From contig CAWDVR010000004.1 in NCBI GenBank assembly GCA_963805975.1, forward strand, positions 352,001 to 416,000: 64,000 bases of DNA. Direction: 5' to 3'. Within the stretch, counting starts at the first letter, position 1, and every line of letters begins with the position of its first letter. The stretch comes from an uncultured Acidobacteriota bacterium (GTDB taxonomy: Bacteria > Acidobacteriota > Thermoanaerobaculia > Multivoradales > SZUA-115). The notes beneath the pieces were generated by a model that saw only the letters and a program-made list of their open reading frames with translations, was not told the DNA's origin and did no database searches. Made by a program: the position numbers and the translations under genes. Shown in pieces: positions 7,130 to 13,731 of the stretch.

Positions 7130-9748
7130 ATGCCGCGCATGCTCAGCACTCTGACGGCAGGGCTCGCCCTGCTCGCCGCGGGGGTGATCGCCCGCGCCCA
7201 GGAGGCAACGACGGCCACTGCCGCGCCGTCGCCTCCGCCCGAGGTGACGCTCGAGCTCATCATGTCCGATCCCGACTGGCTTGGGAACCCACCCGAGAGC
7301 CCCTACTTCGCGGACGACGGCCGCTCGATCTTCTACTCGCAGAAGCGGCCCGGCGAAGAGGTGCGGGACCTGGTGCAGATCGACCTCGCGGGCCAGGTGC
7401 TGCGCACCGTGGCCCTTTCCGACTTGGGGGCCGTGGACGCCCCCGGCGGCTCCTTCTCGCTCGACCGGAAGCGCAAGGCCTTCGTGCGCGAGGGCGATCT
7501 CTTCGTCAAGGATCTCGAGAGCGGCGAGCTCCGGCAGCTCACCCGCACCGCCGAGCGCGAGCGCTCCCCGCTGTTTCTCACCGACGGCAGGAGCGTGGCT
7601 TTCCGGCGCGGCGACGCGATCTTCGTGCGCGACCTCGTGACCGGGCTCGAGCGCCAGACGGCCGATCTGAAGCTCGAGGTGGACCCGGAGAAGAAAGAGG
7701 AGAAGTTCGACTACCTGGCCGAGCAGCAGCCGCGGCTCCTCGAGTTCGTGCGCGAGACGAAAGAGAAGGAGGAGGCGCAGCGGGAGCGCGAGCTGGCGCT
7801 CCGCCGCGCGGACCCGACGCGCATCCCGCCGCCGTTCTACCTTGGCGACAAGGTCGAGATCCGCCAGATGTCGCTCTCACCCTCCGGTGAGTGGCTGCTG
7901 CTGGTGCTGGGAAAGAAGGACGAGGACGAGGGCAAGAAGGACCAGATGCCCAACTACGTGACCGCCAGCGGCTACGTGGAGACCAAGGAAGCGCGGAGCA
8001 AGGTGGGCACCGGCGAGGGCGTGAGCGAGAGCCTGCTGCTCGTCGACCTCGTCCGCGGCGAGAGCCATGCGCTCGCTCTCGACGGCCTGCCGGGCATCAC
8101 CGACGATCCGCTGCGCGAGATCCGCGAGAGGACCGAGGCGGCGCGCAAAGCGAAGAAGGAGACGAAGAGGAAGCGCGGGCTGGAGGAAGAAGACCTGCCG
8201 CCCGAGACCACGCCGCCGCCGGTCACGGAGGAAGCGGAGACGGATGCCACCGGCCTCGCCGCCACGGTGGAGCCCGGCCCGGAATCTCCCGACCCTGCCG
8301 CAGACCCTGCCGAGGAGAAGCCGGCGACGCCCAAGGCACGGCCCGTGCGGTTCACCGAACCGGTGTGGAGCGACGACGGCCGGCGCCTGGCGCTCTCCGC
8401 CTTCTCGGTCGACAACAAGGACCGCTGGATCGCCACCGTCGACTTCGAGAAGAAGGCGCTGGTGCCGCGGCACCATCTGCACGACGAGGCCTGGCTCGGC
8501 TGGGACTTCGACGAGCTGGGCTTCCTGCCGGATGGCGGGAAGCTCTGGTATCTGTCCGAGGAGAGCGGCTTCTCGCAGCTCTATCTGTTGGACCTTGGTT
8601 TGGACCTCACGGCAGACGGCGCTGCGTCACCCCGGCAGCTCACCTCGGGCGAGCAACTGGTCTCCGAGGTCCGCGCCTCACGCGACGGAGAGCACCTCTA
8701 CTACCTGGCCAACCCCGCTCATCCAGGCGTCTACGAGGTGTTCCGGGTCGCGGTCGAGAGCGGCGAGGTCGAGCCCCTGACCCGGCTCGGCGGGCTCAAC
8801 ACCTACCAGCTCTCGCTCGACGAGAAGCTGCTCCTGGTGGAGCACTCCGATGCTCTGCAGCCGGTGGAGCTCTATCTCCAGAGGAACGAGCCGGAGGCAT
8901 CCGCCACCCGCCTCACGCAGACGGTGAGCCCCCGGTTCGCGTCCATCGCCTGGACGCCACCGCAGTTCGTGCCCGTGCCCTCCACGCACGCCAGCCGACC
9001 CGTCCACTCGCGGCTCTATCTGCCGGCCGATGGGCCGGAGGGAGCCAGCCCCGCCTCGCGTCCGGCGGTGGTTTTCATCCACGGCGCCGGCTACCTCCAG
9101 AACGCGCACCAGGGCTGGTCCACCTACTTCCGCGAGTTCATGTTCCACACCTTCCTCACCCGCCACGGCTACGTGGTGCTGGACATGGACTACCGCGCCT
9201 CGTCCGGCTACGGCCGCGACTGGCGGACCGCGATCTACCGCCAGATGGGCACCCCCGAGGTGGAAGACCTGGAGGACGGCGTCGCCTACCTGGTCGCCGA
9301 GCACGGCGTGGACCCGGCGCGGATCGGCACCTACGGCGGCTCGTACGGCGGGTTCCTCACCCTGATGGCGCTGTTCAAGAAGCCCGACCTCTTCGCCGCC
9401 GGCGCTGCGCTGCGGCCGGTGACGGACTGGGCGCACTACAACCACCCCTACACCTCGTCGATCTTGAACACTCCCACCCTCGACCCCGAGGCCTACGAAC
9501 GCAGCTCACCCATCGAGTTCGCCGACGGCCTCGCCAAGCCGCTCCTGATCTGCGCCCCGATGCAGGACGACAACGTCTTCTTCCAGGACACCGTGCGCCT
9601 GGCGCAGCGGCTGATCGAGCTCGAGAAGGAGAACTGGGAGGTGGCGATCTTCCCGGTCGAGCCCCACGGCTTCCGCGAGCCCTCGTCCTGGCTCAACGAG
9701 TACCGGCGGATCTTCAAGCTGTTCGAGGAGAACGTCGGGCGCCGCTAG
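7130..9748 (+). CDS. S9 family peptidase (dipeptidyl/prolyl oligopeptidase-like), secreted
   Basis: GGSYGG nucleophile elbow, DDNV, VEPHGF catalytic His, N-terminal DPP-IV-like propeller, signal peptide. Confidence 0.9.
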   Translation: MPRMLSTLTAGLALLAAGVIARAQEATTATAAPSPPPEVTLELIMSDPDWLGNPPESPYFADDGRSIFYSQKRPGEEVRDLVQIDLAGQVLRTVALSDLGAVDAPGGSFSLDRKRKAFVREGDLFVKDLESGELRQLTRTAERERSPLFLTDGRSVAFRRGDAIFVRDLVTGLERQTADLKLEVDPEKKEEKFDYLAEQQPRLLEFVRETKEKEEAQRERELALRRADPTRIPPPFYLGDKVEIRQMSLSPSGEWLLLVLGKKDEDEGKKDQMPNYVTASGYVETKEARSKVGTGEGVSESLLLVDLVRGESHALALDGLPGITDDPLREIRERTEAARKAKKETKRKRGLEEEDLPPETTPPPVTEEAETDATGLAATVEPGPESPDPAADPAEEKPATPKARPVRFTEPVWSDDGRRLALSAFSVDNKDRWIATVDFEKKALVPRHHLHDEAWLGWDFDELGFLPDGGKLWYLSEESGFSQLYLLDLGLDLTADGAASPRQLTSGEQLVSEVRASRDGEHLYYLANPAHPGVYEVFRVAVESGEVEPLTRLGGLNTYQLSLDEKLLLVEHSDALQPVELYLQRNEPEASATRLTQTVSPRFASIAWTPPQFVPVPSTHASRPVHSRLYLPADGPEGASPASRPAVVFIHGAGYLQNAHQGWSTYFREFMFHTFLTRHGYVVLDMDYRASSGYGRDWRTAIYRQMGTPEVEDLEDGVAYLVAEHGVDPARIGTYGGSYGGFLTLMALFKKPDLFAAGAALRPVTDWAHYNHPYTSSILNTPTLDPEAYERSSPIEFADGLAKPLLICAPMQDDNVFFQDTVRLAQRLIELEKENWEVAIFPVEPHGFREPSSWLNEYRRIFKLFEENVGRR

Positions 9749-9879
9749 GGAGACCTGCCTCGAGGGCGATCTGCTCCGTCGCGGGTCCTTCCGGAAACCG
9801 GATGGTTCCAGAGTAGACTCGGTGATCGAGCCGCTCCGTCATCGAAACACCGCCGCCCAGCGGTTCGAGGAGGCTTGCC

Positions 9880-10620
9880 TTGGCCCAGAAGCCGCCTGCT
9901 CCACTCCGTCCTCCCGCTTTCCCGGCTCGTGCTCTGGCCGCTCATGTGCAGAGAGCCGTCCTGCGAGCGGTCCAAGCCAAGCTGCCGGAGCGGCCGGCAT
10001 CGACCGCCGGCACGACAGCCCAGCCGAACGCTCACTCCTCAGTGCCGGCCGCACGACCCTTGGCGCCCCACGTGCGGGCCGCGGTGGTGCGGGCGGCACA
10101 AACCAAGCCCCTGAGCCGCGCGGCTCTCCAACCCAGTGCCGTCGGCCGGCTGGGCGATCCCAGCAGGGCCCTGGGTACGCGATCCACGCTGCGACCGATC
10201 TCGGCCAAGGCCGTGATCCAGCGCGCCGCAATATCGGATGACGAGGATGACGAGATCGCGGCCATCTTTGCGGGCAATGTCCAGCATCGAGCTCCGGAGG
10301 AGCTCAAGAAGCTCCTCGGGGGTAGCTTTCCCACTATCATGGTCGCAGACAACTACTTGACGCGATGCTCGGCCGCCGAGATCGACGCTCTCTACGGCTT
10401 CGCAGTCACGCTCTCGAGCGGCCGGGCGCCGCGCGGATCCATCTTCGAGGATTTCAAGGCCAAGTTCACGTCAGCTCCTAGCAAGTACATCGCCGAACTC
10501 ATGTTCGTGAACACTCCTGCCTGGGACTTCGGCGAGGTGTCGGCGAGCGGCCAACAGATCCTCACCTACAGCAAGACGACGTGGGACACGAAGGGAACGA
10601 CCCTGGACGCGAAGGACTAG
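9880..10620 (+). CDS. Hypothetical protein: low-complexity repeat N-terminus ending in VIQR plus an unrecognised C-terminal domain
   Basis: GAGGAGG Shine-Dalgarno 6 nt before TTG 9880; 246 aa ORF filling the gap between peptidase and methyltransferase. Confidence 0.65.
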   Translation: MAQKPPAPLRPPAFPARALAAHVQRAVLRAVQAKLPERPASTAGTTAQPNAHSSVPAARPLAPHVRAAVVRAAQTKPLSRAALQPSAVGRLGDPSRALGTRSTLRPISAKAVIQRAAISDDEDDEIAAIFAGNVQHRAPEELKKLLGGSFPTIMVADNYLTRCSAAEIDALYGFAVTLSSGRAPRGSIFEDFKAKFTSAPSKYIAELMFVNTPAWDFGEVSASGQQILTYSKTTWDTKGTTLDAKD

Positions 10621-10645: not shown

Positions 10646-11392
10646 CTAGCCAACCCTCCCTACTCTCAGCACCAGCGGCCAGCGGATCGCCCGCACCGAC
10701 TCCGCCTTACCCCACTCTGCCTCCAGCTCGGAGCGGATGAGATCCAGCGGGTCCTCGCCGCGCTCCTTTTGGTAGCGCCGTGCCGCCGACCAGGTATCGA
10801 GGTAGCCGGTGAGGTCGGCGAGGGTCCACTCGACGCGCATCTCGAAGGGAGGGTTGGAAAGCTCCTCGAACGGGAAGGGCAGCGTCTCGTAGAGCTCGTC
10901 CACCCACTTGCGCTCGGGCGGCCAGTAGGGCCCGACGATCTCCTCGTGGTAGAGCCGGATCACGGCATCGATCCCGGGCGCCACCCTCAGCAGGTCGTAG
11001 ACCCACACCGCGAGCGACCCGCCCGGTGCCGCCACCCGGCGAACCTCGGCGTAGAAGGCGTCGAAGTCGAACCAGTGGAGGGCCTGCGCCACGGTGACGA
11101 GGTCGACCGTCCCGCTCTCGAGGCCGGAGCGCTCGGCTGGCGCCGTCCTGTAGCTGATGCCGGGATGGGCCTCGGCCTGGGCGATCTGGCGGGCGCTGGC
11201 GTCGGTGGCGATCACGCTCTCGAAGTGCTGGGCGAGCCCCAGGGCCGCCTGGCCGTTGCCGGTGGCGCAGTCCCAGGCGAGGCGCCGGCCGGGGACGATG
11301 GCGGCGAGGTAGGCGAAGAGCTCCACCGGGTAGCGCGGCCGGTGCAGCGCGTAGGCACCGGCGTGGCCGGAGAAGTGGTCCTTGAAGTTCAT
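10646..11392 (-). CDS. Class I SAM-dependent methyltransferase
   Basis: AWDCATGNGQA motif I, VDLVTVAQALHWFD. Confidence 0.9.
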   Translation of the reverse strand: MNFKDHFSGHAGAYALHRPRYPVELFAYLAAIVPGRRLAWDCATGNGQAALGLAQHFESVIATDASARQIAQAEAHPGISYRTAPAERSGLESGTVDLVTVAQALHWFDFDAFYAEVRRVAAPGGSLAVWVYDLLRVAPGIDAVIRLYHEEIVGPYWPPERKWVDELYETLPFPFEELSNPPFEMRVEWTLADLTGYLDTWSAARRYQKERGEDPLDLIRSELEAEWGKAESVRAIRWPLVLRVGRVG

Positions 11393-12999: not shown

Positions 13000-13731
13000 A
13001 TGCGGTCCCCACGTCTTTTCTCGGCCTTGTTCCTCTTCCTGGCGCTCTCGGCCTGCGCCAACAAGGCCTCTTCTCAAGCCCCCGTGGTTCTCGAGACCGA
13101 GGACCAGAAGACCCTCTACGCCCTCGGGCTGGCGCTCGCTCAGAACGCTCTCGGCCAGTTCGATCTCACCGAGGCCGAGCTGGCGACGGTGCAGGCGGGC
13201 CTGGCCGACGGCGTCCTCAAGCGCACGGCCAAGGTGGACCTCCAGACCTACGGCCCCAAGCTCGGCCCCCTGGCCCAGGCGCGGGCCACCGCTCTCGCCG
13301 AGAAGGAGAAGGCCGCCTCGACCGAGTTCCTGACCCAGGAGGCGGGCAAGTCCGGCGCCGTGAAGGCCGATTCCGGCCTGATCTACACCGAGATCACCGC
13401 CGGTACCGGCGAGAACCCGAAGCCGACCGACAATGTGACCGTCCACTACAAGGGCACGCTGCGCGACGGCACGGTGTTCGACAGCTCGATCGACCGCGGC
13501 CAGCCGGCCACCTTCCGGCTCGACCAGGTGATCGCCTGCTGGACCGAGGGCGTGCAGAAGATCAAGGTCGGCGGCAAGGCGCGGCTCGTCTGCCCGGCCG
13601 CCATCGCCTACGGCGACCGTGGCCGTCCGCCCCAGATCCCCGGCGGCGCCACCCTGATCTTCGAGGTGGAGTTGCTCAAGGCAGAGGCCACCCCGGCACC
13701 GGCCGCACCCCCCACGCCTCCGCAGCAGTAG
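13000..13731 (+). CDS. fkpA: FKBP-type peptidyl-prolyl isomerase lipoprotein (FkpA/Mip-like)
   Basis: VTVHYKGTLRDGTVFDSS, AYGDRG, IPGGATLIFEVELL; lipobox LSAC; AAGGAG SD. Confidence 0.9.
   Translation: MRSPRLFSALFLFLALSACANKASSQAPVVLETEDQKTLYALGLALAQNALGQFDLTEAELATVQAGLADGVLKRTAKVDLQTYGPKLGPLAQARATALAEKEKAASTEFLTQEAGKSGAVKADSGLIYTEITAGTGENPKPTDNVTVHYKGTLRDGTVFDSSIDRGQPATFRLDQVIACWTEGVQKIKVGGKARLVCPAAIAYGDRGRPPQIPGGATLIFEVELLKAEATPAPAAPPTPPQQ

Follow-up and report, generated by a model that had tools for sequence, protein, structure and literature searches.

An apparently undescribed repeat leader marks a polymorphic protein family associated with one type of type VI secretion system in Thermoanaerobaculia

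Type VI secretion systems (T6SS) have no signal common to all their cargo, and with every tag newly found (MIX, FIX, RIX, PIX, WHIX) a hidden set of effectors has come to light. MIX, FIX, PIX and WHIX are described as domains in other Gram-negative groups. As proposed for the leader described here, PIX and WHIX, as well as MIX and FIX (PMC10435454), are N-terminal markers of polymorphic T6SS cargo. RIX of Vibrionaceae resembles the leader further: its tag is N-terminal, short, basic and helical and precedes polymorphic C-termini, its genes are orphans that co-occur almost completely with a T6SS, it is restricted to a lineage, and its anti-eukaryotic members lack immunity genes (PMC10435454). 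RIX is a single arginine-rich two-helix domain of ~55 aa in Vibrionaceae and Moritellaceae with demonstrated secretion (PMC10435454), whereas the putative secretion tag described here is a low-complexity leader that holds 1-5 copies of an 8-residue His-Val repeat and ends in a QR junction, with Ala, His and Val rather than Arg as its invariant residues. It also differs in its Thermoanaerobaculia hosts, in having members inside the T6SS operon and in its DUF4157 partner. By host range the leader is not a RIX member, as the named records that carry it are titled Thermoanaerobaculia or Acidobacteriota rather than Vibrionaceae or Moritellaceae; by analogy, it may work like RIX and other T6SS cargo tags. 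T6SS have been called rare in Acidobacteriota in a preprint on another family of the phylum (10.1101/2021.04.09.439258).

The DUF4157 (PVC-metallopeptidase) toxins of extracellular contractile injection systems (eCIS) show similarities as well, with polymorphic C-termini, disordered linkers, VQR-type junctions, frequently missing immunity genes and an HExxH domain in cis or adjacent (PMC3482391, PMC8213781, PMC11297309). DUF4157 is described in these sources as an eCIS determinant or marker, whereas the subfamily reported here lies in a ClpV/TssJKLM-type T6SS operon, often as a stand-alone protein, and most of the cargo genes, including the one studied here, lack DUF4157 in cis. The domain is "sometimes present in T6SS effectors" (PMC11297309). 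It has been proposed to act as a releasing peptidase (PMC3482391), in loading, maturation or temporal protection of the producer (PMC8213781), or as a cis or trans chaperone (PMC11297309). For AlgoCIS, loading required the disordered N-terminus while DUF4157 was dispensable (10.64898/2026.05.27.728243), and Cgo1 was reportedly toxic irrespective of the DUF4157 protease motifs (as cited in PMC11297309). The cell-anchored contractile system of haloarchaea ("archaeal T6SS") likewise combines dispersed DUF4157-linked cargo with a cell-bound contractile machine, but carries DUF4157 in cis on the cargo, has immunity partners and uses an archaeal machine (PMC11566945).

The gene studied here lies in a window of 64,000 nucleotides, the whole stretch of DNA analysed, from the genome of an uncultured Acidobacteriota bacterium (G000; G001 and higher numbers are the other genomes compared). 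Features of the locus are given in Table 1.

Table 1. Features of the query gene and its surroundings (window positions; aa, residues of the query protein).
Feature	Position	Strand	Remarks
Upstream neighbour, S9 prolyl oligopeptidase (S9 peptidase)	7130..9748	+	signal-like N-terminus; same neighbour in G001
Shine-Dalgarno sequence GAGGAGG	9867..9873	+	6 nt 5' of the TTG start; kept in G001 orthologue
Query gene, repeat leader and C-terminal cargo domain	9880..10620	+	246 aa, TTG start
Leader, aa 1-115	9880..10224	+	basic, P/A/R-rich; likely disordered outside repeats
Repeat 1, LAAHVQRAVLRAVQAK, aa 19-34	9934..9981	+	predicted amphipathic helix (low-confidence model)
Repeat 2, LAPHVRAAVVRAAQTK, aa 61-76	10060..10107	+	predicted amphipathic helix (low-confidence model)
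VIQR junction, aa 112-115	10213..10224	+	candidate cleavage or boundary site
Cargo domain, aa 116-246	10225..10617	+	predicted six-helix bundle and poorly modelled 30-aa tail
Downstream neighbour, convergent SAM methyltransferase	10646..11392	-	context only, no immunity candidate
FKBP-type isomerase, ordinary gene nearby	13000-13731		

A search of 60 relatives recovered a syntenic orthologue of the query in one, G001 of the same genus, at 82% identity. The two genes differ mostly at third codon positions, with dN/dS values of 0.33 for the leader and 0.49 for the C-terminal part, which indicates purifying selection. Since it has a syntenic orthologue under purifying selection, the query ORF is a real gene, and both a housekeeping protein and an untranslated ORF were rejected on the basis of the relatives search and the dN/dS pattern. 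An earlier note, made from the letters of this DNA, had pointed to a strong Shine-Dalgarno sequence, the lack of a Sec signal and the lack of an adjacent immunity gene, and all three observations held. The ribosome-binding sequence is also present in the orthologue; the query has no hydrophobic or signal-peptide-like segment (maximum 19-aa Kyte-Doolittle mean, 0.9); and the next gene encodes the convergent methyltransferase, leaving the query without an adjacent immunity candidate. The whole protein had no Pfam or NCBIfam match, searches for a sigma-70 promoter and a terminator gave no match, and no RNA holder was listed. Scanning metagenome contigs with the full protein confirmed 0 of 595 candidates.

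Proline, alanine and arginine make up 50% of the query leader, consistent with the composition that the earlier note had described, and the leader contains 18 K/R, 2 D/E and 1 aromatic residue. Both motif copies are present as that note had quoted them. Its division of the protein into ~128 and ~118 aa needed correction: AVIQR is present but ends at aa 115, so that 115 aa belong to the leader and 131 aa to the C-terminal domain. Across the family, the repeat core reads A-[PA]-H-V-[QARE]-[AR]-A-[VLI] (in shorter form, A-[PA]-H-V-x-[AR]-A-[VLI]), is often followed by AQAK and occurs in 1-5 copies per leader, with a junction of consensus [VAT][VIAL]Q[RPA][AM] after the repeats. Each leader holds several hydrophobic-hydrophobic-Q motifs. 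In an alignment with the first three homologues, the invariant columns start exactly at Q114-R115, and the repeats are also found in two distant full-length homologues of the query, P0004 and P0005. The median family leader contains 12% K/R, 0.9% D/E and 0% aromatic residues, a hydrophilic, positively charged and disordered type that eCIS-associated toxins also show, though it is not confined to them. The leader had no match among Pfam and NCBIfam models. An Atlas look-up with the leader part returned only clusters without names at 0.93-0.94 (these scores are uncalibrated for parts). At pLDDT 39, the single-sequence AlphaFold model of the entire query could not be used.

The C-terminal domain is acidic (19 D/E vs 12 K/R) and of no recognized family, as proposed earlier; LYGF, SGRAPRG and VSASGQ are conserved within it. 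A sequence search of 1.8 billion representatives produced six matches, three of which were true relatives, while the other three were long repeat proteins that we judged to be chance matches. Prediction of the fold, which the earlier note had suggested, yielded a bundle of six helices from a 6-row alignment (pLDDT 63) and no fold match: neither PDB nor BFVD yielded a Foldseek match at E <= 0.001, although an absent match is not proof of a new fold. A wide fold search gave a likeness to NusB (best Z 5.7, rmsd 4.8), which was dismissed as within the range of generic helical bundles. PDB sequences and PHROGs did not match the domain, and the Atlas look-up gave only clusters without names (0.82). 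A weak eCIS_core cluster also came up in the Atlas (0.82), and no weight was given to any of the Atlas matches. Recognized toxin folds occur in several sister proteins, and none was matched in the query domain. Family membership suggests that the query is an effector and that this domain is its candidate payload.

A six-frame motif scan of the source genome identified 19 dispersed leader genes. Nineteen frames (18 genes) scored above the best reversed-sequence decoy (19.3), and one DUF4157 gene fell just below it; five unstarred frames above the decoy maximum were judged to be shadow frames. The motif matrix was trained on the same genes and is not independent, and a two-repeat profile (alignment A4) was therefore used as an independent check across 251 genomes of the order at E <= 0.001. 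It matched 16 genomes, 10 of which had not been used to build it, and 0 of the other 235. A single weak match in an adenylation-domain frame of G038 and single matches in G058 and G401 (E ~0.04) were dropped as chance. Among 301 genomes of the class, with 23 candidates scored per genome, the profile matched three, all within the query's order; among 301 genomes of the phylum, scored in the same way, it matched the source genome and one stop-interrupted sequence. No real leader was therefore found outside the order in these two samples. The 19 scattered genes, and a leader that no library model matches, agree with the earlier suggestion that the query is dispersed cargo whose leader might not have been described before.

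The fetched loci and the source genome together provided 85 distinct leader proteins. The junction was callable in 68, and their C-termini fell into 49 BLAST clusters, a few of which are frameshifted or DUF4157-containing remainders. The profile search for paralogues that the earlier note had recommended thus returned a common leader on divergent C-termini, and the leader proved to be a modular tag carried by many domains without relation to one another. Pfam-named cargo, with several matches below the curated cut-off, included nucleases and ADP-ribosylating domains (GH-E, HNH/WHH, EndoU, Tse2-type ADP-ribosyltransferase), deaminases (OTT_1508, dCMP, XOO_2897), Peptidase C80, Stv, RING-H2 and F-box-like domains. 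Any Pfam match was present in 8 of the 45 database leader proteins scanned, and the rest had none.

Several individual members stood out. The leader proteins L049:1483-2112 (G002) and P0034 carry a RING-H2 finger of eukaryotic type (E 2e-14) and a motif like that of an F-box (E 1e-4, under the cut-off) and are possible mimics of the ubiquitin system. In the source genome, C1:440962-446581 (L015) holds four leader genes in tandem, two with frame changes in or after the leader, and the first shares its C-terminal domain with a paralogue at C2:252945. Three leader genes of this genome are interrupted, and three paralogues of the query carry DUF4157. In the database protein P0014 (826 aa), a Methyltransf_28 region and a leader match stand in one chain, possibly through a read-through gene call.

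The leader-rich genomes G003 and G006 had no match to an eCIS tube, and gp25 matches lay beside their leader genes, which turned the search to the T6SS. The source genome encodes a T6SS at C6:136-167 kb, with TssK, L, M, A, B, C, Hcp, E, F, G, VgrG and PAAR detected by Pfam, and ClpV and TssJ assigned by inspection. TssB was found in 30 of the 251 genomes of the order: 16/16 with the leader vs 14/235 without it. It was also present in 10/10 leader genomes left out of profile building, and within family f7 it occurred in 11/11 leader-positive vs 5/39 leader-negative genomes. In a tree of TssB and TssC, which left out the leader-linked TssB of G475, the 15 leader genomes included occupied two sub-branches, each confined to a single family (2 changes). 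This placement on two T6SS sub-branches in two families suggests about two independent gains, so Fisher P values for the association overstate it. Fourteen TssB-positive genomes lack the leader, nine of them in the same T6SS clade, and 10 of the 14 were still negative when rescored deeply; the T6SS therefore does not need the leader.

Physical linkage was also evident. Four of the 19 leader genes in the source genome lie in or within 5 kb of the T6SS locus, where 0.15 would be expected by length; the query gene itself is unlinked to it. Leader genes directly 3' of clpV number five in a row in G002, four in G006 and one in G003, and those of G001 lie downstream. In both lineages, leader genes are co-directional inside T6SS operons, placed either behind clpV, between tssG and clpV or immediately in front of vgrG. 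One tagged gene is conserved at 18 loci of the genome collection, all titled Thermoanaerobaculia or Acidobacteriota, and 16 of these have T6SS-locus genes within 10 kb, although the 18 overlap genomes already counted for TssB. As in the class of T6SS cargo tags, a T6SS is encoded (16/16 genomes) and genetically linked at the operon level, and a common N-terminal element precedes polymorphic C-termini. One T6SS type incorporates tagged genes, including the conserved one, together with a distinct DUF4157 subfamily. The conserved tagged gene, whose product might serve this T6SS as an adaptor or as a core effector, lies directly before vgrG or beside a stand-alone DUF4157 gene (G000:C6:162114-162758; L016:10115-10756, alignment A5), and its unannotated domain has invariant HP[ST]IA, AAGE and GHNDKTGH motifs.

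Compared with their G001 counterparts, tssC (C6, ~144950-146450) of the source genome has two frame changes, and so does its tssF (C6, ~147400-149240). Frame changes were seen in 6 of 85 genes compared, or 4 of 83 when tssC and tssF are excluded. Those in tssC and tssF raise the possibility that the machine of this genome may be decaying; an assembly error is also plausible.

The T6SS loci of leader genomes encode a DUF4157 subfamily with the tail RVRNPFGSGVAVVQD (RVRNP-tailed). It was absent from seven leader-negative T6SS loci that were mapped and present in the eighth, G046. A search with the tail gave best E values <= 1.1e-15 in exactly the 16 leader genomes and the T6SS-positive G046; the next best was 8e-9. 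HExxHxxQQ and a downstream E are invariant in the subfamily, leaving the zinc-site residues intact. In several T6SS operons the protein stands alone (163-169 aa), divergent from the conserved tagged gene, and in another layout it is fused in the order DUF4157, repeats, Q junction, payload. The source genome has six DUF4157 genes. DUF4157 proteins outside the subfamily often have a VQR junction, and the His-Val repeat was found in 0 of 18 scored; the link between such junctions and DUF4157 drawn in the earlier note was therefore right, with the repeat as a T6SS-specific addition. A complex prediction for the DUF4157 domain with the leader scored 0.02, too low to be informative. As side observations, a fourth RVRNP-type DUF4157 of the source genome (C5:408967-409272) has no His-Val repeat in the N-terminal part examined, and its C3 eCIS locus holds two ordinary-type DUF4157 proteins without the repeat. 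At G046:C359 (L146, L147), a T6SS is accompanied by an RVRNP-tailed DUF4157 fused to a payload, and the contig ends there. No leader match was found in the G046 genome, and its arrangement is a possible intermediate state.

Small co-oriented immunity-like genes were present after 0 of 20 gene ends checked in the source genome, using gene calls made here, so the family in this genome lacks the adjacent immunity genes of classical polymorphic toxins, as the earlier note had remarked for the query. NLS-like motifs occurred in 7 of 49 C-terminal clusters vs 2.9 in shuffles and 0.5 in proteome controls, a modest enrichment given that 5 of 200 shuffles were as high. Missing immunity genes suggest eukaryotic targets, and together with the NLS-like motifs, the RING-H2 and F-box cargo and the precedent of RIX effectors, which are orphan, lineage-restricted and without immunity genes when anti-eukaryotic (PMC10435454), they make eukaryotic microbes the likelier targets. 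We put the chance that these are the main targets at about even. Nucleases and deaminases without immunity genes could instead act on bacteria.

Taken together, we consider it likely that the query is an orphan T6SS cargo gene of Thermoanaerobaculia, with the repeat leader serving as a RIX-like, lineage-specific loading tag and the helical C-terminal domain as payload. The tag is probably a loading signal because every sampled leader genome has a T6SS, often flanking the tagged genes. Given a modular leader and its integration with one T6SS type, the amphipathic repeats within the basic, disordered leader would be bound during T6SS assembly; loading into the Hcp lumen is one documented cargo route (PMC13323088). 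The most plausible partner would be the T6SS-encoded DUF4157 acting in trans, as adaptor or peptidase, since fused versions consist of DUF4157, then the repeats, then QR and the payload, and taking DUF4157 away from this layout gives that of the dispersed genes. The hydrophobic-hydrophobic-Q-R junction would mark the start of the payload and may be cut. Injection may be mostly into eukaryotic microbes, as suggested by cargo that lacks immunity genes and includes RING-H2, F-box and NLS-like members.

A more elaborate version of the T6SS loading model, which is possible but on balance doubtful, is that the DUF4157 cargo module, a marker of eCIS, was grafted onto a canonical T6SS and split. A stand-alone DUF4157 with its zinc site would then read the His-Val tag on dozens of dispersed cargo proteins, load them and/or cut them at QR, and deliver an immunity-free arsenal (RING, F-box, nucleus-directed) into soil eukaryotes. 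If true, this would mean a T6SS signal in the form of a linear motif, a function of DUF4157 that can be tested and dozens of effector domains still without annotation, including that of the query.

One alternative is the eCIS that the earlier note had emphasized. The query would then be eCIS cargo and its leader an eCIS tube-loading sequence, which would fit the disordered and system-specific loading sequences of eCIS (10.64898/2026.05.27.728243) and the similar VQR/LQR junctions of many eCIS-type DUF4157 proteins. The source genome has two eCIS loci (C3:889-916 kb, L011, L012; C2:1021-1034 kb, L013), one leader gene of G059 lies ~6 kb from an eCIS tube gene, and the tube, present in 88/251 genomes of the order, is weakly associated with the leader (10/16 leader-positive vs 78/235 leader-negative). 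However, the association is absent within family f7 (7/11 vs 26/39), 0/19 leader genes lie at either eCIS locus, and 0/18 non-RVRNP DUF4157 proteins match the leader. The query has no DUF4157 in cis or within two genes, its neighbours being the S9 peptidase and the methyltransferase. Six of the 16 leader genomes had no match to the tube, and Pvc16 was not found in these six either (positive control in G000, G001 and G004). They include the near-complete G475 (99% complete, 4 contigs) and G003 (98%, 30 contigs), while G006 is a weaker case because it is fragmented and has an extra gp25. These tube-less genomes largely refute an eCIS route, which we regard as highly improbable. The earlier expectation that the leader would co-occur with an eCIS/T6SS locus therefore held for the T6SS, at 16/16 genomes and with linkage, and failed for eCIS.

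Two further explanations were considered. The cargo could use the T6SS but be loaded by other means, with the leader mainly an inhibitory pro-region that replaces immunity genes until DUF4157 cuts the Q junction. Missing immunity genes, the several hydrophobic-hydrophobic-Q motifs found in each leader, conservation that sets in sharply at QR and the intact zinc-site residues of the DUF4157 subfamily would all agree with this, as would the proposals of a releasing peptidase (PMC3482391) and of temporal protection of the producer (PMC8213781). We consider it unlikely, given that AlgoCIS loading required a disordered N-terminal region and not DUF4157 (10.64898/2026.05.27.728243) and that Cgo1 toxicity reportedly did not depend on the protease motifs (as cited in PMC11297309); moreover, the same repeats precede dozens of unrelated folds, so a loading tag fits better than a fold-specific inhibitor. 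Alternatively, leader genes might be merely co-inherited or co-regulated with the T6SS, and their products might exit otherwise (lysis, vesicles) or act inside the cell, for example as toxic cargo kept off by proteolysis. The trait is confined to about two lineages, the export markers covered were T3SS/flagellar and VirB4, and T1SS, T2SS or vesicles would be among the possible routes, which gives this explanation some room. Against it, leader genes are inserted co-directionally within T6SS operons in both lineages, there is no signal-peptide-like segment, and some leader genomes lack markers of a T3SS or T4SS: the T3SS/flagellar export gate was not found in G000, G006 or G059, and VirB4 had no match in G000 or G006. 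Another route is thus very unlikely compared with loading into the T6SS.

The repeat leader, which is apparently new to description, identifies a polymorphic family whose members go together with a single T6SS type and a single DUF4157 subfamily. In the available parts of the literature compared, which also included PMC12691689, PMC11566945, PMC6653060 and 10.64898/2026.09.28.754971, we found no description of the leader or of T6SS effectors of Thermoanaerobaculia, although the supplementary effector lists of PMC11297309, PMC8213781 and 10.64898/2026.09.28.754971 could contain members. In an uncultured lineage of Acidobacteriota, the tag is found on at least 49 C-terminal clusters, most of which have no annotation. 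As a short repeat within a disordered leader, and not a folded domain, it lends itself to easy testing and might be portable. Stand-alone DUF4157 genes in the operon, with natural cis and trans layouts, make a role of this domain in loading, chaperoning or cleavage directly testable. Genes for IPT/TIG-domain, MORN and SPOR proteins, a methyltransferase and a FadL-type porin recur as accessory genes of this T6SS type in the order (G000:C6:136445-168918; L119, L016), and the T6SS loci of G000 and G001 also hold a trio of kinase, response regulator and adenylate cyclase.
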